The notes: generated from the letters alone by a model not told the origin. 64,000 nt of DNA from Psammoneis japonica (GCA_008632985.1 QPGO01000016.1:716840-780839), one strand, 5' to 3'. Positions 16,497-64,000 are shown, counted from the first letter of the stretch. Numbers and translations: made by a program.

Positions 16497-17299
16497 CAGA
16501 CGGGATCCAAAAGTCGATTTTTGCAACGCGAAGCATTGTTGAAAGCCTCGAGCTTACCTTCAGACTCTCAGCATCCTCAAATTCACAACAATCATGAACT
16601 GGATAGCGCTTTGAAACGTTTGATTCGCCGTATTCGAACGCATCGTCACTCGTGGACGAGTCCGCGGTGCTCATCCTGCCATTCGATCCTACTGCAAAAT
16701 TCACGTAAAATTCTACGTAGTGTAACTTCCACGTGTCAGCAGGCTAAATAAATCGAAGAAATATTGTCGCTCAAAATTCGACGGTGAATAGCACTATCAT
16801 GGGGACTCGTTCTAGTTGATGAATAAGAAATTCATTCAATTTGGGAGCAGGAGCTTCGAGGTGTGGCCGGATTTTTTGTGAGCTTTTCGAATGAAAAATT
16901 AGGAAAAGCACAAAATCTACAGCGGAAGCAGTATTGTTCTACATACTTGATTTCTCGTTGAACTGGTACTCGCCAAAGATATCGCGCCAGCTGTTGCTGT
17001 AAGTACCTGTATGTACTACGTCTACGTAGGAAAGTACAGATTCCTGCGTTGGAACCACACGAGAGAAACCACACGTTTCGGCGCGCAAAATCCTTATATT
17101 TCTAACCATAAATTTGAATGAAGAATAAAGTAGTATCGAGAATCAGATGTGACACACACACACAGTGCGCTTTCGCGCCAAAATTTGAATTTCAATTTTG
17201 CAATCTCCCCTTGCCCCCTCTTGCAAGACGAGAAGTTAAGTTGTTAGATTACGTGACCAATGAGTCATTGTAAAGAGTGGCTCTTGTTGCAAAGAACAA

Positions 17300-18950
17300 A
17301 CAACGCACATTTCTTCCCAGCCATCTCATGTTGAGAGCTGATCTTGCGTCCAAGCAGCGCCACCTCTCTGGAGGCCCCTTCGCAGGGACCCAATTCTGAG
17401 TGTGGTGGAAACCATCCATTCACACATGTGTGCAGCATGGCATGTCACTGATGCACGCCACAGATGATCTGAATGCACAAACAGCCCTTTGTCTGGCCAC
17501 CTGAGTGTTCTTGGTTTGAATTGTTTTTGATGCGACAATTTGAAAACTGCTGGCAAGCTGCAGCAGAAGAAGAGTGTGTTGTGGCGCTGGTGCTCCCATT
17601 TAAGGAGTTGTCATTCATGGGCTGAACTGTGTGACAATTGCACATTGTGGAGAAGGCATGGCTGCAGTTGCTGACTGATGAACTTGATGATGGAGAAATT
17701 GTCATTGGGTGAGAGTCAGCCGTGCGACATTGTTTCGTTGACATCACCCATCACCAGCGACGACAACGGCGTGGGAGTTCTTTGTGAGTGCGTGTCAGTT
17801 CTTAGAGACAGTGACAGAGCTGATGTTTGTAAAATTTTCATCACTGGAACAATGGCAGGTTCAGGTTCAGAGGATGCAGGCATCTGAGCAAAGCTTGTGT
17901 TTTCTGCTTCTTGCCTCATTGGACTCGCGCCCATTGCAGCAGAAACCGGTCTTTGCTCCTTCTTCTCCCTTCGCCTTCATTTGCAAACAGCCCCATTGTT
18001 CCTCTTTTTTTTTTCTTTGCCATCTTGATGAAACCATTTCTGAGGTTGATGTCACACCTTGCCAAACACCTGCATCAGCTGAGCACTGCCTTGCTCACTC
18101 TGGTTTTCCTGGGCTGGTTTGGGCTGTGTGGGATTGATCCAATTGCTTTTGTGCAATCTTCCACATTCCTTTCCTCTCTTCCTTCAGCCTTGTTGCCAAA
18201 ACCATTTCACATTTGGCGACCTTTTGTTTGCTTTTCTGGCACTTCCGCGCTGCCAACAATTTTGGAGTCTGGCTTCTTTTCACCACACACACAGCAGCAG
18301 GCAGGAAGAATGAGGAGCACACCTTGTCCGATGGTTTTTTCACATTTGTTTTTGTTTCCATGTGCTTTTGCCAGTTGTTCGTCCTGTCCCACCAGTTTGA
18401 TGCAGGTTGTTTCACCACAAAATTGTTTGGCTTGGCAAACAACAGAGCCAAAGTGCAAAAGTCATAAAAGGCTCCTTCTTGTTGGTGAGAACTTTGGGAA
18501 TCATGACATTCTTTTTCCATTCTTGCAAAATGTCAAAGCAAAAATCAAATTTTCAACTCATTGTTGCCCCCGCATGGTTCTCTTCTCTAAATTTTCCCAG
18601 GTGCGGCCACACAAGATTGGCGACCTGCTCCCTTCGCGCAAGCAAGAGAACATGGTTTTGATGTCGTGGTGATGTGATGTTCACTTTGTGAATTTTCACA
18701 TGTTGTCATGTCAACAAATTTTGCATTTGTGCACAAATGCCAACAGCAACAGGAAAAATCCTGAACCATGTCCTGGCAACCATGGGGCGGGAGTTTTCAC
18801 TTGACAACACACACATGCTGGCGCAAGAACATGAACACATCCAACTCAATGCAAGTGATGATGTCATCACCAACATCCCACAGGACCACTTGCAAAGGTG
18901 TGAAGAGAGCCCGGGTCCTCAAAAGTTAATTGTGTTGACACGGATTTTGA
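17300..18950. mobile_element. Degenerate TpA/CpG-depleted repeat relic, family not assigned
   Basis: Near absence of TA, excess TG/CA, broken Cys/His-rich frames. Minus-strand MLHTCV resembles NVHTCVNG of the Harbinger at 49.8 kb (weak). Confidence 0.5.
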
Positions 18951-20506: not shown

Positions 20507-21309
20507 TGTAAGGTATTACTGTATTGGCGTTGATCGATTGGCTTTTTGTTTTTTGTGAGGTTGCATGTCGATTCTCATTTTTGGGGTTCGCTGCAGATTC
20601 AAAGGGATCACGTAGAAACTGGTGGACATTGTACGTGGAACTCTTCGTGTTCCCGCCATTTTACGTAGAGCTCTACGCAAAATGTACTAATGCATTTGCA
20701 ACTTGAAGGGTGCGCACGAGACAACGTGGAAAACAAGGTGTCAAGCGAAATCAGTGAAAATACAAACGCCCTCCAAAAAGCTCATGAACCTGAATCTGAA
20801 GGAATGTTTATTATTATGATTTGAGGATAAAATATAATGTCGTTGGAAGTTAATATCAATTAAAAATAGAGGGATATATTAAATAAAAGTAATACATAGA
20901 CCATTGCAAATGAAGAGCCTACTGTACATTTTCGAGGACAATCATTTGCGAAACTTCCGTCAAATAATGCGGAACCAAAGCGAAGATTCGTGTCAAGCGT
21001 GTCGCTCATTCGCTGCTTCAGTCCCGAATCAGCCTTTTTTACGGGACTGACTCACTTCACCTTTGTGTCTCGTCTGCTATCCATCCGTCAATATATCTGT
21101 CCGTTGTCAGGTGCTGACGAACCTGACGTTGAAGTCATGCACGCGCGTTTTTTTCGGACATGCTGCGCGTGAAGAATGAGGCATTTTGTGCCTGCTCTGC
21201 CGCCGCCGCCGCGCGCCTCTGTGTTGTTTTCCAGTGTTGCGTGTTGCGTCGCGTGTCGCATCTCATTGGTTTGTTTGTTGCTGTTGTTGCCTTGCAGCCG
21301 ATCTAAACC

Positions 21310-26908: not shown

Positions 26909-27206
26909 CCATTGTACCTTTAGATTAGAAAAAAGAACTTTTTGTCAATCCATCACCGGCACCATGATTTTCAACGCTAGCCAGCCAATCACATCGGTTT
27001 TTGTTGTTGAAGGAGCTCCGGGTTTACTTTTCATGTAATCTACAGCACCGCATCTTGTATCGATGTGAGTCCCATTGTACCTTTAGATTAAAAAAGAACT
27101 TTTTGTCAATCCATCACCGGCACCATGATTTTCAACGCTAGCCAGCCAATCACATCGGTTTTTGTTGATGTAATCTACAGCACCGCATCTTGTATCTATG
27201 TGAGTC
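26909..27206. repeat. Tandem duplication (26909-27071 / 27072-27206)
   Basis: Both copies run CCATTGTACCTTTAGATT...GTGAGTC; the first carries an extra ~27-bp insert. Confidence 0.9.
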
Positions 27207-30200
27207 ACTCGTCGGAAAAATTGGTGAGTAAAGTCGAGGATAAAACCTTTGGACCGTTCGCTCCATTCAGGGGGGCATGAACAACACTTCAACAATGTCC
27301 AAGGTTTGTGCAAGTTCATATGAAATGAAAGAGAGAAAATGCTTACAAGTCAAATTCGAGTGCCGCACGTAGACCTTGTCGCTTTCTAAACTGAAGCATT
27401 TAGTTTTTATACACATCTAATTAGTCTTGGGCTTTCCCTCGACCTCGTATCCTGGCAATAACGTATCGACTCAGTTCTTGAGAATCGCCAGACGCTCCCC
27501 AAGAAACAAATCCCCCCTACCTGGTAGGGCTACAGTACATACGCTGTAGTCGGATTCATCACCTGGAAGAAGTAGCTTGCGGAACCGGTCTTGGAACTGT
27601 AGATCTTGGTGCAACGTGGTTATTGATCGTCATCTTCGGAGCTTCGCCTTGCTTTCTCGGTACGTGGTAGTGTTTGACAAATTCTCGTCGTTCACGGACA
27701 AGTCCCAAAGATCCAAACATTGTGCACGTAGTGCTTTCAATAAACGCTTTGAATAATCAAGTAATGAAACAAACAGAAGTGCAGACAGCCCTTTATTTGT
27801 TCGGAAGATTAAGCAACAGAGAAATTCTCAGAAGAATCGTGTTCCTCTGCTGGCAGTTCTGTTTTTGTGAGCAGTTGCCAGATACCGGTAGATGATCAAG
27901 ATCGCGCAAACCCCGCATGACATGGGCGAGAAAAATAGCTTTGAAAATGCATCGAAAGAGAGTGGTTACAGCGAAAGCGGTACAAATTCTACGAGGGCTA
28001 GTTGAATAATTATATCTTCTATGGATTCTAATAAGATGAATTTTGACACTGCGACGCAATGAATGTGTATCAGGTGTACAGTCCGGTATGCGTCTGAGTG
28101 AAGCGCAAGTTGACGCAACTCAGGCAGCAGCAGTTTTCTGATTCCACGTCAGCAAAAACGATCACGCAACAATGCGTTGTAGTTTCCGCCGCACTGTACA
28201 CCACTTGAAGAAATGCTGCATGACGAAGCATTTTCTTGAAACTGCCACAGATTTCACCCTCTGGGCAAGTTGCTCAAAAGCTTTCCTGTGTGTGGGTGGG
28301 CAAAAGTGTGTGTGCGGCGTGTCATCGACAATGTTCAGGGTGGTGCAGCAGAGCCCAACACACGCAGAAAGAGCACGTCATGCTGATGTGAGATGTGCTG
28401 CCTTGGTGTGATTGGCAGAACCTCATCGGAACTTGGGCTCACATGAGAAGCAAAGTTGGCTGGCTTCAGGTCAAAACACAAGATCACACTGCCATGTCAT
28501 CCTTTGTGCAAATGAACGCGAGCACCTGTGGCAGCATTGCAGCATCATCTCCAAGTGACGGACGGCTCTGCCAGCTCATCCTCCACACACCATTCCATGT
28601 GTGCTCCTTCCCAGTGCATGCCGCAGCATCAGCCATGCCTTCTTTTCTGTCCAGCCATGCGCCCCCCCACCCCCTGTTTTGGTGGTTTTGTTTTGCGCAC
28701 AGAATGGCAAAAAACATGGGGAGCCATTTTTTGCCAGCTTGGCATGCAAAGCAGCACAGCAGCCACTGGTTTGGCTGCATGATCGCACTGCCAAGTGTGC
28801 AGAGCAACAAGAACCCAAAGTTTTTCTGTGTGTGTGTGCACTCAACATTTGCCACCACTTGCAAACCCTGCAGTCAATCAAATGTGCTCCATGCTGTTTG
28901 AGAACACAAGCTTTGGCAGCTGTGGTGTGGAGCCCACAACAAGACTTTGAGAAATGTCGTTTTTGTCTTGCTGGAAATTGCACATTTTCAAGCCCTTTTT
29001 GCTTAAAAACTCCCTCCACTGTGACAGTGTGCTGAAAGTTCCACAAGGCAAGAGTGTCCACTCCTGCTTTTTTTCACCCCCGCCAGCAGCCAGCTCTCAT
29101 GCGCAGAGTTGTTCTTGGCTGGGGGGTGCGCAGAAATTTTGGAGGCATCTGCTGCTGATGCACCACCTGAGCTCTCATCTACAAACAGTTGCTTTCTCTC
29201 AAATGCAAAATGGTGATTAAACTGGTGCAGGAGCTGCACCCACCTGCCTTCATTTGGTGGCGCCAAAGGCAGGGCATCCAGCCACATGCCATCTGTGCGC
29301 ATGTGGAAGAATCAGCCCACACAGATGTGTTGGCAGGTTGGTGAGTTTAATGAGCAGCAGAAAAAATGAGTGCAGTGCAACTCAAGTCACTCACTCTGGT
29401 CAGCTTGGGGGGGGGGGGGGGGGCATGCACACCAGGGAGTCATTGGACGGAACAGGCTCAGACCCAGCCAGATGTGACGAGAACAAGAAAAAGTGTGCTT
29501 GGGGCACAAGCCCAGAAACCCATCACCATCCTCAGCTGGTGCAACTCCAATGAAGAAAACACACAGTTGAGCCCCTTGAGTTTGGGTTGCAGCACACAAT
29601 GGCTGGCAGAGCTCAAGGAGCTGGGCTGGAATCCTGATGTGTCAGAAGCCTCACCTTGTTCATGTTGGCCACACTGTGGGCCTCGTTGTCTTCTCCAGTG
29701 TGGCTGTTTGGTGAGTTCATGAACCTGGATGTTAGCCACCTGTTTTGTCACATCACAGCACAAGTCAGCATTTCATGGAGCTGTCCTTGTCAAATGGGGT
29801 GGTTGTCACAACAATTGGGAGGGAACAAAGTGATGTCCCTCGCTTGCAGTTGTTTTGTGCCCAACTCATCACCAACTCCAGCACACTGTGGAGTGCTTCA
29901 AAACTTCAACTTTCCTTTTTTGACCAATGAAAGCACTGCATTTTTGAGTGCACAGGTGCATGTGTGCAGCTTGTGTGTGGTGTTGTGCATGAGATTGTGG
30001 GCCAATCACTTTGTGCACTGCTTTTTAAAAGGTCAGAGACTTGGAGGGCAAATGCACAAACATGGCGCAAGGGGGCATGGTGTGCATGTGTGAACAACCA
30101 CACCATTGCACTGGAGGCAATGGCACCCAATCTCACAACACACAAGTTTGCCACTTGCTGAACATTTCTGGCAAAGCTGGCACTGGGTGCCATGGCAGGG

Positions 30201-31726
30201 AGGGGGCATGAGAAGCATTGTTGCACCACTTGTCTGGGGGGAGAGAGGAGCAGCATGTCAGTGACAAATGCAGCAAAAAGAGAACAATGAGAAGATGCAG
30301 GAAAGAGATGTGGTGGTTGCTTTGGAGACATTCTGCAAGAGCTTGTGCATGGACTCTGCAAGTTTCCAAACAAAAACATCCCTGAGAGGAGCCACATGTG
30401 AGTGCATGAGAGAGATTGACATGATGGCAATGGGGGGCACACAAAACATTTTGCAACACAAACTGATGCCAGCAAATGCAGGGTTGGTGAAAAAGGGTGA
30501 GGTGTGCTGGCCAACCAAAAACAAAGGCACAATGATGTGTGCAATGAACTTGAGCACAAACAGCCACCACTGCACAACAAGCAACATGAAAGCCCGCAAA
30601 CAACAGCACATGACAAATTTGAGATCACATCAACAAATTTTCTGTTGCAAAATTGTGCCAGACACATGGGCAGCAGAAAGGGTTGTGATGTGCTGGAGAG
30701 CACCAACAATCACAAAAAGATGGCACTGTGGAGATCAAGTTTTGGAAGGCATGGAAAACATCATGAGCTTGCACTCTCACACTTCTTGCACCACTTTCTG
30801 CCAGTCATTGTCAGAAAAATGCTTGGAAGAACATGATTGAGGGCTGAGTGTGAAGCTGAGCAAGCTTGCAATGGGAAGCAATGCAAGGAGTTTGCTCAGC
30901 TGGCACAACTGGCAAAAACAAGTTTTTTTTGTTTGTGTGTGCAGAAAATAAAAAAAGAGCTGAGGGAGGCTCACAACACACTGGGGGTGAGCTCCAGAGA
31001 CCAAGCACAGCACACCAGAAAAGGGAAACGAGCAAGAAGAAAGCATCGGAGGGTTTGATGAAAAAAGGGCTGGCCAGGTGTGGGGAGATGGGAAAGCAGC
31101 AGGCTGTGGCCAGAAAAAGAGGTGACAACAAAATTTGGTTGTGACAGTTCTGCCAATTGTTTGCAAGCTGCAGAAAGTTTGTCACCTTCAGGAGTGTAGA
31201 ACAGCTGCCAAAAATGACAATGACAGCAACAATTGCTTTGATGCCCCAGGGGCATGTGGGGGACAGGCCGCATCACAGTGCAGGCAGGGCCACACAGCAT
31301 GACACTGCTCCTCAGCATCTCAGAAACAATGAAACAAGAACAAATTAGAGTGCAGCACACACCAATGCAAGCCAGCGCAGCATGTGTTGTGGGGCATCAA
31401 GAGACTGAGCCCACACTGCTGCAAAAATGAGTTGTGTGCAGTGGCCGTGTGAGCATTGTTTTCTGCACAAACATGAGTGTGCTCAGGCAGCCAGGCTGTG
31501 GCCCAAATGATGTGGACAACCCAGCCATTTGGAAGAGAGAAGAGAGAAGAGATTGCCACATGGGAGCCTGTGGCACAACCCGTGTTGCTGTTTGTGACAG
31601 CATGTGCAGATGTGCAGGTCTCTGAATCAGCCAAAACACACTTGCTTCACTCTGGCAGCACAGAGAACCCCTGCATTGTTTGGGGGTGTGCCGGACTCAA
31701 AAAACATTGTCCCCCTCCGAGTGTTG

Positions 31727-34700
31727 GAATGTCAAGATGAGAGACCCAGATGTCACATCATGTCACCTGGATCAATTGAATGAGAAGGAGATGTTGACTC
31801 TGATGTGGTTGGCTGATGTGATCTTTTTCAATGAGATCACAACCATCAACACATTCTTTGCATGTGTTTCATTCTCTCACTCTTTGGAGTGAATCATTTG
31901 CTTTGCACAATTGTCAGTTGGCATCAAGAGGCACTTGTTGCTTTGGCAATTGTGCAGTTTGCACTGATGCCAAGGCAAACCACAGCCATTGTAGACTGCC
32001 GGGGCAAGCGCAACAAGCAGCTCAGGAAACCTTGCAGGATTCCCTTTTGGAGACATGGATTTGGTGCCAGTTCAACATTCACTCCAAAGAGTCAGGAGCG
32101 CTGCACTTGGCACTCATTTGCTTCAAGATTGCTGCCAACAAAAAGACATCAGAACACCTGCACAATGAGTGGCAGAGGAGGTGGCAGGATGAGCTGTCAA
32201 GGCCAAGGACAATGAAAAGGTGAAGGCCAGTGCCAAGAAACACTTTCAGTCTAAGATGAAGTTCTGTCCTTCATCACTGAACAGCTTTTCCTGCAATGTG
32301 ACATTTGAGGAAACCAAAGAAAAGATCACTCACTGCATGCAGAAGGAGTGCAGCCAAGGGTTGCACCTGGTGACATCCACAGAAGAAATGAACCACAAAG
32401 ACTTCATTGGACAGAGGCCCATGTGTGAAGGATCTAAGATTGTTCTGCCAGGTGTGAGCAACCCCAATTGCCAAGAACAACTGATGAAGAAGGCCAACAA
32501 AGAAAAAAGTGTGGATGGACACCCAACACAAGACAGACTTCAATGAATGGCACAAAAAGGCCAAAAAGTTCAAAGAGAACAAGACTGCTGCATTTGCCAA
32601 GCTCCTGGATGACTGCTGTTCAAAACAGATGAAACAAAGACTGCAAGAAGACCCCAACTTCAAGAACACCATCAGAGACAATCAAGCTGCACTGCTGAAA
32701 CCAATGCAAACCCTTGCACTTGACTCTGTGAGAGGTTGACACCCACTCCATGCACTCACAAAGGCATGGTGCACAAGACTTCTTAGAGAACCTGCCAATG
32801 ACAATTGGGGCAAGCCAGTCCATTGCATCAAGTGCCTGAGCCGAACAAGAAACGAAGTTGCTGTGCTGAGTGTGAAAGACCTCTGAATCATCAAGTGATG
32901 TGTGGACACATTGTTTGCAGTGCACCCTGATTTCAAGAGCCATGCCAGAGGTGCAATGACCATGGGTGCAAACACCCAAAGCAGCACTGAAGCTGAGTCA
33001 GCTGGAGTTGACAATGCAGTGACCATGACACCATGGACCAAGTTGTTCACAGAGCACCAAGGACACCCAATTGACACTGACATCCTGCATCAGGAAAACA
33101 AGAGTGCCATCATCCACTGGAGACAAATGGGTGTTGTCAAGAGAGCAAGAAAATGGTCTGGGCTGCTCAACATTGTTTTTTTGCAATGGATCAGATTGAG
33201 AAGGTCAACCCAGGCAGGGTGCAAGTCCAATGGATGACATGTTGGAGGACTTAATTGCCAAGCCACTGCAGGACAAGAAGCTCTGCAAGTTCAAGTGAGC
33301 CATTGTGGGCTGCCAAAGAGAAGGTGAGCATGAAGGGTGCGCAAGCTGTTTGTGATGTCAGACCAGAGTTTGGACACATGTGGGTGAAAGATCCCTGCAC
33401 CCAATGGTTGTGGTGAGCCAAGTGTTCAACAAACCACAAATTTGCTTTCAGATGAACCATGATGTCCATGAGAAGAGTGCCCACCCATCCTGATGATGAC
33501 CCAGGACACGTCAGTGAGGGGACAGAGCCACGTGACACTTGCTTGCAATGGTGGCGCCAAGACATTGTTGGGACAAGTTCAAGAGGCCAATTGAAATGTT
33601 GGAGGAAAGGAGAATGGAAACTGCAAATCAAGATTGCAAGATGGTGGTGGAAAAACACTGCAGACATGATGAGAATGGATTCATGCCAAGGCCTGTGGAT
33701 CCAATTGTCTTGCATGAAATGATCAACATGAGATCATTGATGTTGGAGTTGGAGAAGGATGGAAACAACATCTGGGACCATTTCAACAGTGTGAAAGATG
33801 AGTGCATGGAAGAGCTTGAAGACAAATGGCTGGCACAAGCTGTGGGCAGAGAGGCTTGAAACAGGGCCTGTTGTGTGCAAAGTCTGGAAGAAATGGTCTG
33901 GTGCAGCTCATCAATGTGTGTCTGCTGCTGCACCAATGATTTCCATGTTTGGTGAAGGAAGCACAGTGTTGCATGAGACAATGGAACATGCAAAGGCAGC
34001 ACACAAAGCCAAGGAGGATTGGCAAATCATTGGGACACACACCACAATCCAAGGTTTCAAATGTTGCAATGAGGGTGACAAGGTGGATTGTCCTGACAAG
34101 TGTGCAGTGAGGAGATGACAGCAGGGTTCAGAGGCAATGAGTTTGGCTTGCCCTTGACAAGAAAGACATTGACCTTGCATGGAAATGGTTGCTCACAAGG
34201 GGTTCACATGACTGAGTCATCAAAATGAAATGACACAATGGTGGTTTGGCAACAGACAACTGTGGACGAGTTGTTTGTGACACTTTGAAGTTGGTGTGGT
34301 TTTTCCATCAAAAAGTTGTTAAAGTGAAGCCTGTGCTGAAATGGGCGCTTGTTATGAAATGGAGTTTTGCCATCTGCAGCCCTGGAGAACCAATGAGTGG
34401 GTGTTGGATGCAATCAACAACGTGGGTCAATGCAGTGAGGGGAAGTGCAAGAGAAGGTTTGTCACGTTTGTGTGAAGAGTTTTGTTGATCAAGTTGACAA
34501 CACTGCAAATGAGTTTCATGTGATGCTTCACCTTGAGAGTTGTGGTCCCAACTGGGAATTCATGACATTGTGTGAACTGTTGGACAGCAACAACATTGAC
34601 ACTCCCATCGAATTAGAAGTGATTGTGCCAAGGGGCAATGCTGAGCCCAGTTGTGTGATTGTGAAACCAGCAGACATCAGATCATCAACATTTGAGTGGC

Positions 34701-35056
34701 GTGAGTGAGTCAGAATGTCAAGACAAGAGACCTGGATGTCATGCTGTGTGACCCAGATCAATTGAATGAGAAGGATGTTGATCATGGAGTGGTGTCGGCT
34801 GATGTGATCTTCTTTGATGAGATCACAACCGTGAGCACATTCTTTGCATGCATTTTGTTCTTCTCGCTCTCTGGAGTGAATCATTTGGTTTGCATGACTC
34901 CTGTCAGTTGGCATCAAGAGGCACCTGTCATTTTGGCAGTCGCGCAGTTTGCGCTGATGCCAAGGAAAGCCACAGCCATTGCAGACTGCCAAGACAAGTG
35001 TGACGAGCAACTCTCAGACAGGGGGGAGACATTGCAGGATTCCCTTTTGGAGACAT
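31727..35056 (+). repeat. Dispersed direct repeat: copy A 31727-32056, copy B 34713-35056
   Basis: Alignable from GAATGTCAAGA to GGATTCCCTTTTGGAGACAT; differences are dominated by transitions. Confidence 0.9.
32200..33320 (+). pseudogene. Internally deleted Ty1/Copia (CoDi-like) relic: gag fragment joined to RT/RNase H end
   Basis: gag-like FKENKTAAFAKLLDDCCSKQMKQRLQEDPNF..IRD; RNase H IIK*CVDTLFAVHPDFKSH, SSTEAE..GVD, WTKLF, ILHQENKSAI. Confidence 0.85.
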
Positions 35057-35682
35057 TGACTTGCCGGCTCAACACTGTGGCAATGGGCAGAAGAGATGGC
35101 TGCAAAAGAAGAGAAAAATGGGAGGATGGAAAAGTTTAACAAAACCCAGCTGGTGCAAGGTTGCTGTGTTTGATGAGATTGAGAACAGAGACAAAGTGTT
35201 CCGGCAGAGCAGGGTGGAAGAGGGCAAGCTGAGAAAAAGAGCTGGCCGCCAATTTTGCTGTGCTGAAAGAACTCTGTACGGTAGAGAGAGAGCGGGGTGG
35301 AAGAGGCTGGGGGTCTGCAGCGAGCCCAGCACTGGGGAGACAGTGGTCTGGCTGCAAGTTATTGTTCATCATCATGATTGACTCAAGGATTGACACCTCA
35401 GCCCCAAAAGTTTCAGTCGTGAGGTTGGGTTGCGGGAACAAAACGAAGCATTATCGTGCGTGCGTGACCACGTCACAAGAAAACACTCGGGACCGACGCA
35501 AGAAGCCATCGTGTCTTCTCTTCAGATCGCCTCATATTGTAACATCATCTCTTGGAAAACCCTCGACGCACATCACTGTACAGATATACTCGTTACAAAT
35601 CGCACTCCCTGGTGCCAGTCTTCCTTGCATACGAAAATTACGTTGATCATAGCTGTTGCTCTCTTCAGAAAGCGAAAATACG

Positions 35683-36252
35683 ATGGGAAATTCTTCATCG
35701 TCTTCACTCCCAGCACTTCAAACAGCAGCGAGCTGTGACACTGCCAAATTCATGGGAACATGGTTTGTAATTGGAGTCAAGCCAACCTTGTTAGAAAAGA
35801 CATGTTCCAACGCAGTAGAGCGATACTCCATGACGGAAGGGAAAGGACACGACATTGATATTGACTTTACATTCAACACAGACAAGCCACTCGAGTCTCG
35901 CGTTAAATCAATGCCACAGAAGGGGTGGGTCCAAGGAGACAAGAAGAATAGCGCCAACTGGAAAGTGTCGCCTTCGTGGCCATTGAAACTTCCGTATCTC
36001 ATTTTAGATGTGAAAGAGGACGAGTACGTCGTGATCGGATATCCGTCCAGGAGTTACTGTTGGATCATGGGACGAAAACCTCAAATGCCGGACGAAAAGT
36101 ACAACAAACTCCTAGAAGACTTGCAAGAAAAGCATCAGTATGATCTTAATGGGTTGAGAAAGGTGCCGCAAGTGTGGACAAAACAAGAGCGAGAAAAGCG
36201 GGGACTGACGTCAAAGGAAATCCCCGACAGCATGTTGACAACGTTGAATTAA
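35683..36252 (+). CDS. Lipocalin (Blc/ApoD-like), possibly N-myristoylated
   Basis: KFMGTWFVI (SCR1), PYLILD, YCWIMGRKP (SCR3); MGNSSS start. Confidence 0.9.
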   Translation: MGNSSSSSLPALQTAASCDTAKFMGTWFVIGVKPTLLEKTCSNAVERYSMTEGKGHDIDIDFTFNTDKPLESRVKSMPQKGWVQGDKKNSANWKVSPSWPLKLPYLILDVKEDEYVVIGYPSRSYCWIMGRKPQMPDEKYNKLLEDLQEKHQYDLNGLRKVPQVWTKQEREKRGLTSKEIPDSMLTTLN

Positions 36253-36493
36253 ACATTGCTCAGGAGCGAGGTCTTGTGTGTAACACAATAAGTTTCTATT
36301 TATACGTGAAAATGACTCCATACGAGAACAAGTAAGGAAATCGCAGATAAGCATGGCCAAGGAGATTCTAAGTGCTTTGACTTAACTTGCAGTGTTCATA
36401 CATGACGATTCTTCCTTGCTATGCTTCGAATAAGTTTGTCCATATTGTGTTTTATCAACCTAGCTGTGAAGCTACTGGTAATGTCTACAAGAG

Positions 36494-46569: not shown

Positions 46570-47900
46570 TCATCGCAAACGCAAGCCTTCCAATGCGATG
46601 GCCATGTCATTTTCAGTCTGAAAAGGGATTGGATCAATCTCATCATCATTGGTGCCACCAAATTGCAATTCAAAATCACGAATCTGAACCTTAAAAGCAG
46701 GTACTTTGGATAAAACGCTGCGAACCTGCTTTCCTCGTTTGCGGCCTTTCACGTCTGAATGCCAGGGGAATCCCTCCTCCTCTGGGACTTTCACAAGGAT
46801 GTCTGCTTCACATTGAAAGGAGTTTGCATCATGCTCAACCTGCACAATGAGAGCCCTTCCTCCTGCCTGAGTACCATCCACCTTGACTTTGTCATTGGAC
46901 CAATTGAAGTGCATTCCACAGCTGTCAAGGTCGCACCCATCAAATGCAGTCGTTTCTTCGTCCAGGATGCACACTGATTTCATGTTATCACGCCTGAAGA
47001 GAGTGACTCGGAGGCACGGTCCATCTCTGCGACAGGATGGAGCACCATTTGCAATGCATTCTATGATGCCATCTTCAACAACCACATGCTCATCACAGAA
47101 CCAACAGTCGTCCGACAAAGGGTCATCCCCGCTAAATCCTGTTGATGATGCATGGTGCGGATTTTTTACCGTGAATTCCACCCCGGTGTCAGGCGCATGT
47201 TGCCGCTGCCCTAACAGGCCTCCAACTTGTCAATCAACCCACAAGCAATTGTGCACAGTGTTGAAACGATGTCATTTGGCCTGTTTTTGCATCTGCATTG
47301 TTGATGGAAGATCGTCTTTTTTGTTTGTGCGGGGTTTTGCGTGCTTTGGCTCGACGGCAATGGTGGAGCGGCTCTGCAAATGACAAAATCGGATTGAAGG
47401 TCCTGTGTCATGGCACTGTCGAGCTCAGGGGATGACAGAGATTCAGCACATGGTGTGTTGTCATTGAAATGAGTGGTTTTGGGCAGTTGGCGGCTGAACT
47501 CTTGCCGTCATTGTCGCGAAGCATGGCATTCCACCACAACGTGAAGATCCATGTCGAAATTGAATCAGGTTGTGAGTGCAATTGTGTTTGTGCAGAAGCA
47601 GTGCTACGTCGCATGGCCCAAAACGAATGACACAGTGTTTCCCCGTGGACATTTGTCGCTTTTGCCGGAGGAAGCATTGCTGCAGCATGCAGCACGGCAC
47701 GGCACTGTGCCAAATAAAAATGCGGTGCACGCAGGTGTGGCACAAATGCCGGCACCGTACCCACAGAGTCGATCCCACATTGAGACCCACCTGAGATCAC
47801 CAGCCATTAAAATTTCTCTGTGCACATGCAATGCAACTTTTCATGCATGGACATGAAAGATCTCATTGAACTTGTCACAAAAAAATTCTTCCCTCTTTTG
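46570..47900 (-). pseudogene. TpA-depleted broken ORF of unknown origin
   Basis: 203-aa frame (46570-47181) with protein-like composition but no Tyr; further fragments upstream. Confidence 0.4.
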
Positions 47901-48277
47901 CAAATCCGGTTGGTTCATGAGTTTCAGCACGCTGACCAAAATGTCCGACGAGCCGATGCGGACAGGCAGGTGGTGATTTAAGACCCACGTAGAAATGTGC
48001 GTGATTTCAGCAGAGTGACAGATTGCACCTGTTTGCTGTTTGCTGTTTGCTGTTCACTGTTGGCTTCGATTTTTTTAGTTGAAGCGCTGACATCACAAAA
48101 TGGAATTTTGCTTTTTACGAATTCTCAACTCGCGTCCTGTTCCTTTTGTTTGATCAAACTTCAGTCATTTTGGTCAGATGCTCATTTTTAGATTCCTTCT
48201 TCTCGACATGAATGTGGTGTGCCATTTTCATCTCGCAGCTCATTCTGTGTTTCTTGTTCCACTCTCATCGAGCTGCA

Positions 48278-49867
48278 ATGGCGATGCTTGTCAATCCCTT
48301 TACAGGCAAGAGACGTTGCAAGCCCACACGATGGACAACACAGAAAAGGAGGAAGATGTTTGCAATTAATGTCAACGATCAACTGCTTTGTCGAGAGGCA
48401 ATGTCAGTGGCCATGTGTGCTCTGGAGAACACGCAAGAGCATCTAAACTCCACGATCATGTTGGTTGCACAAAGATTGCAGCTCCTCATCCAAAACAACA
48501 TGGAAATGTCACCCCAAATTGCTCAAATGGACCTTTGTCTGCAATTGTGTGTCGGCTCATGTCAAACTTGCATGCTGCATTTCTGCAACGCGGTGCAGGT
48601 TGATGCAGAGGTCGGAGACCTGCAAGACGATGAACTCGAAACTGCTCCGTACAAGGAAATCTGTCGATTCACAAGAATTGACAGCTTCCAAGATGACAAC
48701 GAGGCAAATGATTTTACCACCTTTTCCAAGGTTGAGCTCCAAGAAATGTTGGATCCACTGGATCTTCCAGTGATTGTTCATGTGCCCCATCCTGGGAACC
48801 AAGGCTGCTTGCATTTTCATCGCGAGAGCTTGCTGATCCATTCACTTGTCAAGTGCAAACGACGGGGGACACACAAAGATTTGGCCAACAATGGTGTCTC
48901 TGGGGAAGCGACGAAATGGTCATGTGGTTTCAAGCATTTCGTGCGGCATTTTGATTCGAGATGTGGACACCTGCTTGGACCAGACGGACTCCGACTGTGG
49001 ATGCCACACTTTCCGGATTTTGCCGAGGCGATTTGTCAGGAAGTTGGAAGAGATGTCACGTTGATTGACCCCGAGACGGAAGAGGAACATTTTTGTCCTG
49101 GAGTTCACTGTGAACCCGGCTCTTTTGTGGCACGCGGCTCCACCGATTGCAAAGACCATGCAGTTGCAACACCATGAACGGGCCCTGATGGAAACTGTGA
49201 GGGAAGCATGCGTTGACCGGGACATGATGAGGCTCAACGTTGTGTGCACACTGGGAAGTCTAAAAAGCATGCTCTGAAAATGTTCAATTTGTTCCTTCCA
49301 AATGGAATTCATGCGTGTGCTTGTGGGCCCATGTCATCCAGACCGTGAGTGCATCCGAGCTCCAATGTCATTCTGCTGCGTTGCGTTGCATGTGTCTAAA
49401 ACATTCTTGCCATTCCGTGTCACTCCAGGCATGACAGCAAAGCGCTTGCAAGGAGTCAAATTGACACTTTCCTTCATGTTGTTCAAGAGGCGTGCCCGGA
49501 ACTACAAGGAAAGGTGCGTGCTTTTTACGGAGACTCAGCCTTCAAAGGTGTCTGGTGCTGCATTCGTGCCAGACACGAGCCCACGAGATTAGTTCCTGTT
49601 CTTCCTCTTTGTCAAGTTCAAGAAAATGCAGCAATGAAGTGATGCCGTCAATCTGTGGAGTGGGGGTGTGCGGGTGAGGTCAACATCTGTGCACTGATGA
49701 ATCGCAAGGAACAGTTCAAGCTCGAACAAGACCACGATTTTGTCCTTGCGCAGCTTCGTGCAGGTCTTCTTCTCCACAATGTCCACACATGCGTGAATGG
49801 ATCACAGACAGGAAATGGACTGGGCTTGCGTGCCCCAGAGCTAGAAGACCACTTGCCAGCTGGATGA
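48278..49867 (+). pseudogene. DDE_Tnp_4 / HARBI1-like transposase, inactivated
   Basis: TDCK, QRCVHTGKSKKHALK..PNG..GP, HD, YGDSAF, N..MK*CRQSVEWG, HTCVNGSQ, LEDHL; several in-frame TGA. Confidence 0.85.
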
Positions 49868-50084
49868 ATTTTATAATTTTTAGAATAAAATAGATTCCAC
49901 TTTAGTTTTGACATGACAGATCTGACATGACACATCGTGTTAATGTGTCGAGCCTAACTGCACTCTCTAGAATCGATGCCTGTGCACACATGCACTGCAG
50001 GCAGGTTCACAGATGTACATCTGCATGGTGCTTTGTAGCTGCCACTCTCTAGAGTCTAATTGCCACCCCCGAATCACACTCTGT

Positions 50085-50950
50085 CTAGTTGCCGCCCATG
50101 TCATGCCACGTGTTCTCCAGTTCCTTGATTCTCCGGTCATGTCTCTCATGGTCAACATCATCTCCACAGTCCAGAGCATCTTTGCGTGCCTTGCAAAGGG
50201 AGGAAAGCATTGCAGCATTGTGCTTGTGTTTCCTGGACTCCTCCAAGGCATTGTTCTGGGAGGCAAGGAGTTCCATGGTCCTCTCAAACAAGTTGTTGAC
50301 ACGGGCAGAGTTGTCATGCATGTGCTCACCATCAACATCCAATGGAGACGTTTCCGATCCAGGTGCAGATGCTCGGGCCTCAGAAGGCGGAGTGGGGTTG
50401 CTCTTGCGTTTCTTGTCATTGGTGGTGGCGAATGGGCTGCTCTCTGGATCTCTGACAACAGGTGACTTGGAAGTGGCTGAGCCCATGAAATTGACGTTGC
50501 GCATCACTTGGTCGCTGAACTGCAAATTAGTTGAGTTGACAGTGCCAGCAGGGTGGAGGTTCCAACGCGCCTCGCTCGCTTTGTCCGTGTGCTCTTGTTG
50601 AATTTTCCTCGCACATTCTTCATCCTTGCCTGCTTGGGACTTCTTTTCAGTGTCTTGGCATTTCTCCCAAAGCACACATCCCCTTTTTTCATTGTTTGCA
50701 TCCACGAAGTCCTTCTGAGCAAACTCGTCCTCACACTTCTTTGCAAGGTGCGGCAGAATGCCTTTCTCCATCACGAACTTGCGTTTCGTCAAAGCAGTGC
50801 GATTCGCAGTTTTTGACACCTGCAACCCATGCTTTGCTGCAATGCCATTGCTGTCTGCACACAACAGACGGCCTGCTTTGTGCCAAGGATTCTGTGGATG
50901 CTTGGCATCGGATGCAATGGCACTGCAAGCGTGCACTGTTCGACAATCAC
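50085..50950 (-). pseudogene. Harbinger accessory (ORF2) protein relic
   Basis: Convergent with the transposase inside the IRs; charged, coiled-coil C-terminus; 0 Tyr in the 388-aa frame 50085-51251. Confidence 0.55.
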
Positions 50951-51773
50951 AAGCATGTCGGAAAGCAACTGCCGACAAGTTGGGGAGAAAAAAAGATGAG
51001 ACCAAAGTGGTTGGGAGCTGAAAAAATGACACACAAAGTGGAGAAGAGCAACGCCAGAAAACTTGCCTCCTCACATCTGCCATCTGAGACAAGCTTGTCT
51101 GTGTTTGGGAATCGTTGCGCTTTGCGAGGAGCAGCAGCGGCATTCGGCCGAGCGGGGGCGGCGGGTTGATCCCCGATTGATGCCAGCACACCGCCATCGA
51201 CCATGTGACGATGTGCAGCTGGTGCACTGGCACTCGAATGCATGCTGTCACTCATGGTTAGTGTGGAAGTGCTTGATGTCCTGTGTGCTGAAGGCAGGCG
51301 AGTGTGTGGTGTGTGGTGTTTTTCAGACAAGAGACGATGGCGCACCTCGAAGGAATCTCAAAGTGCAGCGAAGCAAGTGGCGAGCTGGTGCAAAAAATGC
51401 GTTCATTTCTACGGGGAGGAGCTGTTTGCTAAGTCGGCTCAAATCGGGCACGAACACAATTGACAACCTGGATCTATGGAAGCCATTGACCATCCTGCGT
51501 CACACCATTTTCTTGGACGTCATTTGCGTGACGCGCGTGTGACGTGGCGAGTGCAATGGCAAATGGCAAACAGCACAATCTGTCACTCTAGTGCTGGAGA
51601 TCAGACGCGCCCCTCAAGGGCCAAGGATTTTTCTGGGGGGTAAAAAGGGCGGCAATCGAATGCTCTCATCGTGCTGTTTCGAACGCGATGCCTCTCGACT
51701 TTTTTCGACCAACAGAAAATTCTACGCATTTTTGTACCACGCCCCACGCGGGTCTTAATTTGTGCCGGGTCTT

Positions 51774-54199: not shown

Positions 54200-55330
54200 T
54201 CAAATCATGAGCCTGTTTTAAACCCCCAAGCACAAGGTGGGAAACCATTGTTGCACTGTCAAAGGCATTTGTTGATAGAGACTGGAGTGCATGAAACCAG
54301 CAGCAATGTTCAGTTGTGACGGATTGAAAAGTTCAATTTTTTAGCAGCACACACAGTGTTCCACAGTTTCATTTTCCAACAAGGCTCACTCCTCTTTCTT
54401 CTCTCATGAGTCAGATCAAGGCTGTGTGACCCATTCAATGCCAACAACACTCTGGTCCAAATCTCTGGCCATCTCTGCCAAAAGCTTGTCTTTGGTTGTG
54501 GCACTGCTTTGAGAGACCATCATCGTGAGTGTGGCTTTCATTGTTCATCATGCCACCCACTCAGTCTTGACTCACAAAAGTGACCCCCTTCCCATGGCAC
54601 CAGTTCCTCACACTTGAGCCAAGCTTTGCTGCTTTTTAACAAAACAGTGCTTGCCTGTCTTGAGTGCAGCCACTTCAAGTTGAAACTCAGAGAAGAAACT
54701 CTGTCTTCAACACCCCAATGTTGCTTTGTTGAATGTCCAGCCTGGATGATGCCTGTCATCGGAACAAGTGAACCCTGCTTTCTCAAAAAATCAAACACCT
54801 GCAAAGTGCTGCCATCTTTCTGTTTTCCCTAAGAGCAAGGAAAACAGTGCTGAGAGAAACAATGCACAGAGCAGCCGCAACTCTGTTTTCCACTCTTGAA
54901 GCATCCACCCAAATCTTGCGCACGGCGCTGGAACATTGTGATGTGAGGGGCTTGCTCTGACGCACTTTGACCACACAGCCAGCATGAGGCTGACTGGCAA
55001 CAATTTAACTTCCATTTCTTTTTGCAGCTTTTTGCCACAATTTCTTGCCTTGCACGTGCGATGTGACATTTCAACAAAGAAAAGAAGGCTGCTCAAGCCA
55101 CTTTTCTCTTCTGCCTCCTCTTGTTGTGTGCTCGCCATTTTGTTGCTTTTTGGCACAACAGCTGGACATTGGACAAAAAGTCAACTTTGAAACGGCTCTT
55201 TCCCTGGACAGAAGCAACACGGTAAGCCGTTGCGCCGATGAACCAGAAAAGCAATCGCAAAGCCGCAGTGGCTCCGACAGCGCACGCATGCATCATGGGC
55301 GTCCATCCATCAGTGCATGCACCGCAGTGC
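54200..55330. mobile_element. Degenerate TpA-depleted repeat relic, unassigned
   Basis: Composition only (TA nearly absent, TG/CA rich). Confidence 0.45.
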
Positions 55331-60719: not shown

Positions 60720-62350
60720 GAGTGCAACAAACTCAAGAGCAACAGGGACCTGAGGCAATTATAGTTCGCAATCCTCTTCAACAAGGAAGGTGTCACGCAG
60801 GGCGATCCATTGCGCATGCGTGCGGGCCAGGCCTTCTCCCACCAGTCCGCGAGATGAACAAGCATTTCCAGCAGCATTCACTCCTTGGCATGCGCCGACG
60901 ACTCTGCCACAGCGAGGAAATTTCATGTCTTACGAAACTTTTTACTGACTCTACGAGCCGAAGGACCCAAGCATGGTTGCCATCCCACTGGCAACTCCAA
61001 GAACATTCTAGCAGCCTCAGAGCACAATCTGGAGAATGCTGAGAAATGCTTTTTGAAGACCTCGGCTTCACCATCAAGACTGGCAGCCACCACCTTGTGG
61101 GTTTCACAGGAGAGCGGGAAGCCTTCGACCAATGGGCAGCAGAGAATGCCTCACTAAGACAGTGATTCAACACCAACAGGCAGCTAAAGCACAAGTGGCA
61201 GCATGTCCAATGAGTGGCAAAGGATTGAGGCAATTTGTTTGCCAGCATGGAACATGCGATCAAGCACCAATTCTTGCAGGCACTGTCAGGAGAGACTTTG
61301 GCAGATGACAACCTGAGATTGGCCCTGCCCACCCTCCTGCACAAATTTGCAGGACTTTCCACACAATGTTCAACTGAGTCTGCAAAATGCAAAACTTTGA
61401 AGTGAGTGCTCTCGCATGCTCACACTTGATTGTTGACTCACTTCGTGCCCCCCTTCCCCCTTGCAATTCACCACAGCTGTCCACAAGGACACAGCATGCA
61501 AGGTGAAGCCAGCAGCAGCTGAAAAGAAAGTCAAAAAGCATGGCAATGCACTCAAAACTGTTCCCCCCTGCACTCTGTTCAACATTTGAGCCTGCATGGC
61601 AAGGTGCAGCACCAGAGCTGGTGCTTGGCGCAATCAGCACAAAACTTTTGCATCACAAATTTTGGGACACCTGTTTCCCATGCTGTGGCAAAGATCCTCC
61701 TGGCCTGCCCAATGCTTGCAGTGGATGCAGCTGGAACTTTTTCATTCAATGTGCCCTTCAGTGCAAGACAGAGGAAAGATCAGCGAGTCGCATCTTGACA
61801 TGATGAGATCTGTGATGATCTCAGCTCCTGCATGTGCACACATTGTCACCAAGCCATCCACAGTGCACAACAAACCTCTTGTCAATCCTGCTGGTCACTT
61901 TTCCAGAAGCCCTCAACTGCCAATGATCAGCCCAAGCAGCTTGCCAAGCCCAGCCACCAATTTCAACAAGTCAGGAGATGGTGGTCATGGGGAGATCTTT
62001 CAGCCAAAAGCTTGTGGGGATGGAGATGACAGATGTGATCATGGGTGCAGAAGTGGCTGACATGCTGGCATCCAAAACCCCCAAAACAAGTCTTGCTGGA
62101 CCATGAAATGGAGAAGAAGTGCAAGTGTCTCAAGCCAGCATGTCTTGGGCAATGCCGTCATTTGTTGCCTGTTGTTGTGTGCCACACAATGGTCTGGTGA
62201 TTGGCAAGGAGGCTCAAGAAGCCATCTCACTTCAGATGGCTGGGGAAAGATTTTTGAGTGAGTGGAAGAAGCTCCGCTTGGAAGCATGAGGCTTTGTCAA
62301 CATGCAACAAGATTCAGCATTGCAATGGCGAGGGCAAATGACCCATGACT
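60720..62350 (+). mobile_element. 5'-truncated non-LTR retrotransposon relic (CRE-like RT, Zn motif, restriction-like endonuclease)
   Basis: KEGVTQGDPL (~60783), CADD (60891), GPKHGCHP, CSGC...ALQCKT, HDEI, GDLSAKSLW. Confidence 0.8.
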
Positions 62351-63630
62351 CTGCTTGGAGGGTGGTGCTGGTCCATCCCTGTGCCAATGCTGCTGGACCA
62401 AGACAGCACATCATCCAAGGGCACACACTGAGGCTCAATGCTGTTGAGTGGGCTCAAGACACTGCCCCTTGACCAGAAGATTAACTTGGTGCCAGCTGCA
62501 ACTCCAAAATTCCATGCACAAATTTTGCTCAAATGTGCATGCAAAAAACTCAGCTCTGCATTCCTGCGAATCCCCAGCCACACAAAAACCCCTTTTGCCA
62601 GTTGTTTTTGCCACAGTGTGTGCTTGTCACTTTGTCATGATGATGACTGCAGCAACAGTGGTGACAAAGGTTCAGGGCACCGCCACTTTTTTGTTGTCAT
62701 TGGTTTGCCACATCTGGCCTGTTCCAGCCCCAGGTGATGAGCAGTCCATCGCGCGAGAGGCCAATTTTCTGTGCAGTTTGGCACATTGAACTCCTTCAAA
62801 TTTGATCGTTTTGAAAATCAAAAGATGAACGCACACAAAAAAACACAAGTTTTGTGTGCACTCACCCTTCCATTTGGGAAAAAACCGATTTTGAAGGAGT
62901 TTGTTTGTTGCACTGAATGCAAAAATGATGGGAATCGAACCTGTGCGCATCACCTGGTGAGCTGGAACAGGCCATCTGACAGAAAATTGTTCAAGAGAGA
63001 GTGAAATGACAACAATGGATGCTGCGACCAAGACCACCAACCCAAAATGCACATGTTTTGATTCAACTGCAGAGTGAACCCATCCAACCAGCAGCCAAGG
63101 ACACCTGCAGCATGCCTCGCTGCTGGACAACACGGCGAGACCGTGCACAAGCCTCTTGCACGTGGCAACGTGGCATTGTCAACACGCACCTGGGAAGCAC
63201 GACCACAGGAGGGCGTGGCTCTGGGTCTCAGGCAATTCCAGAAGGATGCCAAGAGAGCATCCGTGTGAAGCACACTGGCCCGTCGTCTGGCCCACGATGG
63301 CAGCGTGATTCCACACGATGACATCACTCGTGCACAGCGCATGATGGCTTGATTCGCACGATCCACAATGCGAATGCACGATCGATTTGATGCGATCCAA
63401 ATGCAAACGAATGGGGATTTGGCAAGATTCCCCATTCGCACGATCCCATTTTCTCTGCTCTAAACCAGCTCACAATTTCCACAACGACAAAGTCGCAACA
63501 CATCTTCTTTTCAGCGCCTGGCACATGCACAGGGCACAGCAATGTCACTCCCGCATGTTGTGCGAGGTGACGAAATCTGCAGAAACGAAACTGTGAAATG
63601 TTGGCAGGACCGACAAATCTTAAAACGACC

Positions 63631-64000
63631 ATGAAGAAGTGGATTGAGCCGCCGACTCCGTTCGCACGGCGGGAGAAGAAAGAGCTGCAGCAAGGCGAGT
63701 GCCAGACGTTCAAGCTGCGCAACAACCCCACTGATCCGGATGGTCCAATGCATGAGATGGGCATTCTGCACCTTTCCACAGCTACATGCGAGACACTCCC
63801 AATCTTTCTGCGCAACGTGGATCGCGTGCACGAAGGACAAAACATCACACTGGGCCAGCGAAATTTGCCCTCATGCGTGACCTGCTGCAGGGTGATGCTC
63901 TGACATCATTTGACAATGCCACTGACAAGCAGGCATCTCAAACCAATGCCACGCACGCAGCATGCATCGCGAAGCTAAAGGAAAGCATCTTCCCACATGG
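63631..64000 (+). mobile_element. Start of a Ty3/Gypsy-like gag ORF relic (runs off window)
   Basis: PPTPFAR.EKKEL...TFKLRNNPTDPD, GQNIT, LLQGDAL..F, IFP, recognised from diatom LTR-element gag sequences. Confidence 0.65.

Follow-up and report, generated by a model that had tools for sequence, protein, structure and literature searches.

Near-complete loss of TpA in discrete blocks of a diatom genome points to in-situ A:T to G:C hypermutation

We analysed a 64-kb stretch of the genome of the diatom Psammoneis japonica (QPGO01000016.1:716840-780839; hereafter the window) and found five discrete blocks, summing to 17.3 kb, that have lost nearly all of their TpA dinucleotides. The observed/expected ratio (o/e) of TpA is 0.03 to 0.15 in these blocks compared to 0.57 in the rest of the window, by which we mean everything outside the five blocks. 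The most probable explanation is an enzyme-driven A:T to G:C hypermutation that acts in situ, is confined to TpA in discrete non-genic blocks and lies atop the ordinary decay of methylated CpG. Under this process each TpA would be turned into TpG or CpA, on either strand and almost to completion, while the separate decay of methylated CpG in the same blocks would yield the same two products.

TpA loss in five sharply bounded blocks

The window as a whole has a G+C content of 47.9% and contains 1921 TA and 3008 CG, and outside the blocks the o/e is 1.00 for CG and 1.18 for both CA and TG. In 500-bp windows, the TA o/e of the blocks falls to 0.00 to 0.2 and those of TG and CA rise to 1.5 to 2.0 while G+C is unchanged; TG and CA are each almost doubled in the blocks (o/e 1.5 to 1.95). 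Block 2 (Table 1) was the subject of an earlier reading of this DNA from sequence (the original prediction), which described it as depleted of TpA with an excess of TG and CA. Our counts agree, with 20 TA (o/e 0.04), 61 CG (0.15), 811 CA (1.86) and 829 TG (1.92) in 28250-35300, and the stretch of ~1.06 kb said to be free of TA (33255-34319) was recovered as a TA-free stretch at 33253-34319. The same signature had been claimed for four other blocks and is borne out by their composition.

The TpA signal of the blocks is far beyond chance. The longest TA-free run of the window measures 1297 nt (61186-62481), compared to a mean of 258 nt and a maximum of 551 nt for the longest run in 100 dinucleotide-preserving shuffles. 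Similarly, 56 of the 255 500-bp windows contain four TA or fewer, whereas each of 50 shuffles gave at most one such window. CpG is also depleted in the blocks, with an o/e that varies from 0.12 to 0.79 by sub-block.

Block edges are sharp, well under 100 nt. At the left edge of block 2 the TA o/e drops from 0.58 to 0.00 across 28197/28198: the final flanking TA is at 28197, only 17 TA lie in 28198-35136, another follows at 35137 and the next is at 35278. Both flanks are normal (TA o/e 0.58 at 27700-28197 and 0.44 at 35278-35800), and the genes and other non-coding DNA of the window have a TA o/e of ~0.35 to 1.16, so the host genes are spared, as had been proposed. One more TA-poor segment, 21095-21627 (o/e 0.21), lies inside or near the region of an ABCG transporter; it is normal in CpG and in TG/CA and therefore reflects coding bias rather than the block signature.

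The TA-free sequence of block 2 is also found in a public run (X1), from which 31-mer contigs were compared with the window at an identity of at least 85%. X1 contains 0.97 of the sampled 31-mers of block 2, and contigs of 2286, 2695 and 14058 bp span 27138-36500 at a k-mer depth of 54 to 64, the same as that of the flanking genes. These contigs reproduce the TA-free sequence with two differences from the window per contig, and since they are clean and long at 54 to 64x, we take the underlying reads to be accurate. Four full-depth differences separate the window from X1, all of them inside block 2 and all at pyrimidine-purine (YR) steps (Table 1), with none in 2.4 kb of flanks, a total too small for a rate. 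They have the form expected of in-situ mutation still under way between haplotypes or strains.

Modified bases give systematic errors on nanopore platforms, and the platforms of the assembly and of X1 are not on record, so we considered a systematic miscall of a modified base in the blocks, with the real DNA still carrying TA. We regard this as extremely improbable, since noisy reads would not yield contigs of up to 14 kb at a depth of 54 to 64x, equal to that of the flanks, with two differences each. A base that mispairs on both strands would split sites into TG and CA reads, halve the depth and break the contigs, none of which is seen, and two ~360-nt repeat copies within block 2 differ as real independent mutation would make them differ. 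The same clean contigs contradict the modified base that the original prediction had listed among its candidates. A second run from the same sample, X2, gave contigs on the flanks (27000-27841 and 35497-36500) and none on block 2, and a third, X3, gave no contig at all on the region; this missing cover carries no weight.

Evidence for conversion of TpA to TpG and CpA

Expected counts were calculated from the dinucleotide proportions of the rest of the window. The share of YR steps (CA, CG, TA and TG together) is unchanged, at 0.226 to 0.249 in the blocks and 0.242 outside. The excess of TG + CA and the deficit of CG + TA amount, respectively, to 112 and 121 in block 1, 611 and 593 (336 CG and 257 TA) in block 2, 255 and 222 in block 3, 61 and 78 in block 4, and 221 and 201 in block 5. 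The CG deficit alone equals 31 to 57% of the TG + CA excess and is below that excess in all five blocks. TG and CA are present in about equal number in every block, which points to a double-stranded target without strand bias. We observed a slight imbalance in block 5 (366 CA and 303 TG) and in block 3 (500 TG and 441 CA), which may stem from the ancestral composition or from a slight effect of strand.

Mass balance also bears on the idea that avoidance of TA and CG is native to the blocks, as foreign or selected DNA, and owes nothing to a mutation process of the host. The failure to find a homologue of any block is in line with this idea, but the YR fraction of the blocks is that of the host and the excess equals the deficits. 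In addition, the signature is common to five mutually unrelated sequences in which no open reading frame (ORF) structure or domain is kept, and copies and alleles differ by TG/CA. Native avoidance is hardly credible in the face of these observations.

Loss of TpA can be separated from loss of CpG. In block 2 the TpA-free domain reaches ~250 to 380 nt past the CpG-poor core on both sides, and these TA-free margins retain more CpG (o/e 0.43 in 28198-28450 and 0.31 in 34900-35277). In block 5, the sub-part 62901-64000 combines a TA o/e of 0.07 with a CG o/e of 0.79, TG being at 1.91 and CA at 1.51. Since TpA is lost where CpG is nearly normal, and the TG + CA excess equals the CG and TA deficits taken together, two separate processes with the same products are present, namely the decay of 5-methylcytosine at CpG and the conversion of TpA to TpG or CpA.

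Decay of methylated CpG is expected in the blocks because diatom retrotransposons are CpG-methylated, as reported for the long terminal repeat (LTR) retrotransposons of P. tricornutum in the part of the source that we consulted (PMC2806351). It accounts for the CpG deficit and for part of the TG/CA excess and cannot remove TpA. The original prediction held that 5-methylcytosine decay does not explain the loss of TpA; it overlooked the CpG depletion in the same DNA. We rejected this decay as a full explanation, TpA being lost even at a CpG o/e of 0.79, and retained it as a component only. A single process acting on both CpG and TpA was rejected as well, because the boundaries of the two depletions differ and their extents vary independently among sub-blocks.

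In the alignment of the two ~360-nt direct repeat copies of block 2 (Table 1), 289 positions match, 53 are transitions and 11 transversions, and 22 columns are gaps; identity is 95.4% in purine/pyrimidine coding and 78% in blastn. Of the 53 transitions, 33 affect steps where both copies have YR. There are 78 aligned YR steps, made up of 31 TG/TG, 25 CA/CA, 11 CA/TG, 6 CA/CG, 4 CG/TG and 1 CA/TA pairs. By our own arithmetic, CG or TA would originally have occupied ~31 of the 78 given the proportions of the rest of the window; 22 are visibly altered, and with a random direction of change ~11 same-direction conversions would be hidden, for a total of ~33. The pair is as expected if two descendants of one ancestor of normal composition had been converted independently, and independent conversion points to action after the copies had separated. 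We estimate that complete independent conversion alone would separate copies by about 10%. Only one TA is left in the aligned steps compared to 10 CG, and the loss of TpA is therefore further advanced than that of CpG in the same DNA.

An editing of RNA, cDNA or free viral DNA by an APOBEC- or ADAR-like activity before integration, so that the elements were already TpA-free when they inserted, would explain both the sharp edges, such as the drop in TA o/e at 28197/28198, and the normal flanks. Single-strand editing leaves a strand bias, however, whereas TG and CA are balanced in every block, and at 11 shared YR steps one repeat copy went to TG and the other to CA. The window and X1 also differ at the same loci by TG/CA and TA/TG, and the main text of a preprint on the alga Bigelowiella natans (10.64898/2026.01.13.699255) describes comparable mutations that arise in already integrated DNA. 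We consider editing before integration decidedly unlikely, and the hypermutation proposed here would instead act after integration, on double-stranded DNA.

The TAs that survive in the blocks show a strong context bias. Among these 81 sites, 49 (60%) are YTAR (28 CTAA/TTAG, 16 TTAA and 5 CTAG), compared to 301 of 1840 (16%) outside, while RTAY accounts for 4 (5%) compared to 30% outside. Neither ATAC/GTAT nor ATAT survives at all, against 262 and 122 occurrences, respectively, outside the blocks. Relative to expectation, TA is retained at 0.44 in YTAR, 0.073 in mixed and 0.019 in RTAY contexts. The ten site classes are fitted by an additive half-site model, which lets the base on the 3' side of each A determine how fast that A:T pair of the TpA is hit, with rates of 2.54 for T, 1.83 for C, 0.65 for G and 0.23 for A, making 5'-TAY ~five times faster than 5'-TAR. 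The model predicts that ~83% of the products of mixed (YTAY) sites are YTGY, and the observed product excess is 431 YTGY compared to 229 RTGR, or ~78% to 19% after subtraction of an even CpG-derived share. Survivors and products are two independent read-outs, and 5'-T-A-Y is therefore the preferred target; the ranking of contexts is firmer than the rate values. The base pair hit would thus be the A:T pair whose A has a pyrimidine on its 3' side.

These contexts also bear on error-prone repair synthesis of the Pol eta type in heterochromatin (WA to WG, where W is A or T), another candidate of the original prediction. Pol eta makes A to G errors at WA with TA as a hotspot, and in this respect it would suit the blocks. 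ApA is, however, not depleted (o/e 1.04 to 1.36 in the blocks compared to 1.16 outside), which identifies TpA rather than WA as the target. The strong effect of the 3' base, which spares TAA and TAG, and a conversion that is almost complete and strictly limited to TpA also fit this polymerase poorly, and we regard its involvement as very unlikely.

Comparison with known systems and the putative enzyme

By analogy, the process acting on the diatom blocks appears to be that seen in mutation-accumulation lines of B. natans, a chlorarachniophyte (Rhizaria). According to the main text of the preprint (Mettrop et al., 10.64898/2026.01.13.699255), 231 of 302 new nuclear mutations in these lines fell in integrated giant-virus and virophage regions; all but one of the 231 were A to G or T to C, and all of those were on TpA. 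The rate was ~1000-fold above background, in some lines only. The same text reports 124 clusters of TpA-poor, CpA- and TpG-rich 1-kb windows and an enrichment of DDE and reverse-transcriptase domains among TpA-poor coding sequences, and its authors propose an ADAT2-like adenine deaminase, citing DNA activity of natural ADAT2 enzymes.

Both systems share the conversion of TpA to TpG or CpA on both strands and a TpA-poor, CpA- and TpG-rich long-term footprint, as far as the main text of the preprint allows a comparison. They differ in several respects. Our host is a diatom (Stramenopila) and not a rhizarian, and depletion is near total (o/e 0.03 to 0.15) compared to a Rho of 0.45 given for the region of nucleocytoplasmic large DNA virus (NCLDV) origin in B. 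natans. Whereas the targets in B. natans include recognisable viral genes, those described here are without recognisable identity and partly repeated. CpG decay runs alongside in the diatom, while the words "CpG", "trinucleotide" and "diatom" do not occur in the preprint text. New mutations were observed directly in B. natans, whereas the diatom process is deduced from standing sequence. The preference for TAY over TAR was derived here, and the figures and supplements of the preprint, as distinct from its main text, may show a motif. By this comparison, the diatom blocks look like the end state of a B. natans-type process, and what they add is near-complete erasure, independence from CpG decay and the TAY preference.

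The original prediction knew of no description of such a process in diatoms. One was reported in 2026 for B. natans, in the preprint cited above, and for diatoms we found no report of TpA-specific hypermutation in the literature covered, which included two papers on diatom transposable elements and left aside most subscription journals. As far as we found, this is the first sighting of TpA hypermutation in diatoms. With the preprint on a single rhizarian alga as the only description, a second case, from a diatom, would demonstrate phylogenetic breadth; this one is near complete, can be told apart from CpG decay and shows a flank preference that can be measured. Diatoms also offer transformable, CRISPR-tractable species and rich methylome, histone and small-RNA data for finding the enzyme and how it is targeted.

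Our leading guess for the putative enzyme, again by analogy, is a TadA-like adenine deaminase acting on DNA (TadA/ADAT2 type), which would convert A to inosine, read as G. This guess is supported by the fact that bacterial TadA edits the A of UACG, as described in the consulted part of the source (PMC13170351), a U-A-pyrimidine context like TAY. The likeness to TadA and ADAT2 lies in the U or T 5' of the A and, for the bacterial enzyme, in the pyrimidine 3' of it; the natural substrates of TadA and ADAT2 are RNA loops, unlike the DNA considered here. Natural DNA adenine deaminases are barely known, and a natural defence that mutates adenine in DNA, if true, would be new enzymology.

Alternatively, thymine could be the attacked base: in silenced chromatin a TET/JBP-type activity would oxidise the T of TpA, yielding 5-hydroxymethyl- or 5-formyl-uracil or a derivative, which would mispair with G and lead to T to C. 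Dinoflagellates and kinetoplastids carry modified thymine in TpA contexts, and 5-formyluracil promotes T to C mutations. The footprint is palindromic, which makes A to G and T to C inseparable, and the context bias can equally be read as R-T-A, with the T attacked, reacting faster than Y-T-A. Thymine hydroxylation is, however, not known from diatoms, the favoured U/T-A-pyrimidine context matches the TadA motif UACG, and the equal-depth contigs of X1 show no present-day misreading of a modified base. We therefore consider thymine oxidation unlikely.

Several points weigh against an enzymatic A:T to G:C hypermutation of silenced repeat or foreign DNA. The adenine and the thymine of a TpA are indistinguishable from sequence as the base that is chemically attacked. 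No ancestral or unmutated copy was recovered, so the conversions are deduced from composition and none was seen directly, and the expected counts presume that the original dinucleotide composition of the blocks was that of the rest of the window. Some of the surviving TAs may have arisen anew; this would bias the estimated rates but leave their order intact. X1 is of a platform and library type that are not on record, it may come from the assembly's own sample, and it thus does not count as independent proof. In X1 the greater part of block 2 is at single-copy depth at an identity of at least 85%, and Pfam and homology searches found no transposon or viral protein domain or homologue in any block.

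Two known systems resemble this hypermutation in part. Repeat-induced point mutation (RIP) of ascomycete fungi is similar in outline, being a host process that loads duplicated or foreign DNA with a single transition class in a dinucleotide context, within sharp limits and with genes spared. RIP depends on duplication, takes place at a stage of the sexual cycle and involves a RID-type methyltransferase-like enzyme. It turns CpA into TpA, enriches TpA and lowers GC, whereas TpA is destroyed here; identity with RIP is contradicted by the 4- to 20-fold depletion of TpA, the enrichment of CpA and a GC of 0.44 to 0.54 in the blocks. ADAR hyper-editing of repeat-derived double-stranded RNA in animals shares A to G clusters in repeats and a favoured 5' U. 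ADAR favours a 3' G and, to our knowledge, ADARs are restricted to animals. We rejected ADAR-type editing because the half-site rate of TAG is 0.65 compared to 2.54 for TAT and 1.83 for TAC, and because RNA editing would leave a strand bias but TG and CA are about equal.

A wider proposal, which we offer tentatively and as somewhat short of an even chance, is that a mirror image of RIP is widespread in algae of the SAR group (Stramenopiles, Alveolates and Rhizaria). In it an adenine deaminase, possibly derived from TadA/ADAT2 and directed by homology, small RNA or silent chromatin, would erase TAY in repeated or invading DNA. If true, all Tyr codons and TAA/TAG stops of the target would be destroyed, with no new in-frame stop arising from the conversion, and the process would be an ancient defence rather than a lineage oddity and a natural context-specific A to G editor of DNA.

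Nature of the blocks and their surroundings

The original prediction took the blocks for identifiable or probable transposon relics, and this was not confirmed, as no protein homology was found and Pfam gave nothing above noise. All six reading frames of 28150-35430, searched against Pfam with X in place of stops, returned no family, nor did a search with three long block ORFs, and 22 further ORFs of at least 110 aa from blocks 1, 3, 4 and 5 gave only sub-threshold matches to RGS (E 0.03) and UfSP2_N (E 0.022), which we took as noise. Two of the block ORFs, one of 388 aa at 50088-51251(-) in block 3b and one of 279 aa at 17833-18669(+) in block 1, contain no Tyr and are longer than any found in 200 shuffles. 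The former had no homologue among 1.84 billion representatives and no usable Atlas match, and the latter had no homologue either (0 of 344 candidates scored). Conversion of TpA to TpG or CpA cannot make an in-frame stop, because only TAA to TGA gives a stop and TAA is already one. Both Tyr-free ORFs may thus be fossil reading frames that stayed open since the conversion makes no stops.

Homology among the five blocks, searched with blastn and after purine/pyrimidine recoding in both orientations, was limited to the repeat pair within block 2, and metagenome scans for outside copies of its conserved repeat core with two degenerate motifs gave 0 loci each. In X1, however, 241 contigs aligned, and the summed depth rises well above the 54 to 64 of the single-copy flanks over the multi-copy segment (Table 1) and to 242 to 568 over 34608-35241. 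This multi-copy part of block 2 is therefore from a dispersed family with some ten or more copies, and a transposon relic is plausible for that part. The original prediction had A of TpA changing to G on either strand, specifically in repeats. The change itself draws support from the mass balance, from the loss of TpA at places that retain CpG, from the TG/CA and TA/CA differences between repeat copies and from the TA/TG and TG/CA differences between the window and X1. The restriction to repeats finds support in part of block 2, of which only 31755-33656 and 34608-35241 are multi-copy in X1. The blocks are probably silenced repeat or foreign DNA that the process would target as a defence, although no domain matched and block 2 is mostly single-copy. 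DNA of this type escapes repeat and gene annotation because its homology is wiped out, with no match for any of the five blocks, and the transposon and viral content of such genomes is therefore probably underestimated.

Table 1. Coordinates of the TpA-depleted blocks and of features within them
Feature	Position	Strand	Remarks
Block 1	17272..18926		TA n=5 (o/e 0.04), CG o/e 0.36, TG 1.62, CA 1.85
Block 2, TpA-free domain	28198..35277		sharp-edged; subject of the original prediction
Block 2, CpG-poor core	28451..34899		CG o/e 0.12; narrower than the TpA-free domain
TG (window) and CA (X1), same locus	28556..28557		full-depth difference in the sole contig there
CA (window) and CG (X1)	30125
Direct repeat copy a	31723..32080	+	pairs with 34709-35078; LTR-like, or one member of a dispersed family
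Multi-copy segment of block 2	31755..33656		X1 summed contig depth 143-833
TA (window) and TG (X1)	34353..34354		change at 34354, context TTAT; TAT to TGT, favoured context
Direct repeat copy b	34709..35078	+	pairs with 31723-32080
TG (window) and CG (X1)	34742
Block 3a	46712..49841		TA n=25 (o/e 0.12), CG o/e 0.68: mild CpG loss
TA-keeping island in block 3, 245 bp	49842..50086		TA n=14 (o/e 0.71)
Block 3b	50087..51409		TA n=2 (o/e 0.03), CG o/e 0.63: CpG largely kept
Block 4	54219..55222		TA n=6 (o/e 0.08), CG o/e 0.24
Block 5, cut by the window end	60931..64000		TA n=11

The island in block 3 has a low CpG o/e (0.35) and high TG/CA, and 8 of its 14 TA are YTAR; it may be the meeting point of two elements, may have inserted later or may be a group of contexts that resist conversion. 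Just to the right of block 3, in DNA of normal composition, lies an imperfect inverted repeat with arms of 68 nt at 51894-51961 and 52077-52144 that are 71% complementary. To the left of block 2, the intergenic segment 26909-27206 is a tandem duplication of a ~160-nt unit whose parts are 99% identical and in which TA is normal; one X1 contig has two extra letters behind 27089, within this duplication.

Neighbouring host genes encode an ABCG-type transporter, an ankyrin-repeat histone deacetylase (Ank-HDAC), a P-type ATPase, a P450, a PEMT-domain protein and a PUB-domain protein. The HDAC ORF, 13119-14462(-), has an ankyrin-repeat ORF, 14568-15848(-), as its head-to-tail neighbour on that strand. 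The best match of the HDAC is 80% identical, and its homologues include those of Bacillariaceae sp. (74%), P. tricornutum (69%, partial), Cyclotella (65%), a Pseudo-nitzschia gene model (Psemu1, 55%) and T. pseudonana (48%). All of these named organisms are diatoms, which identifies the host as a diatom distinct from B. natans. Several homologues of the two ORFs are single Ank+HDAC proteins of 637 to 765 aa, and by this comparison the ORFs of 13119-15848(-) are probably one gene with an intron of ~100 nt. The ABCG/PDR-type transporter, 21310-26134(+), is split over at least three ORFs, which carry an ABC_tran fragment and two ABC2_membrane domains.

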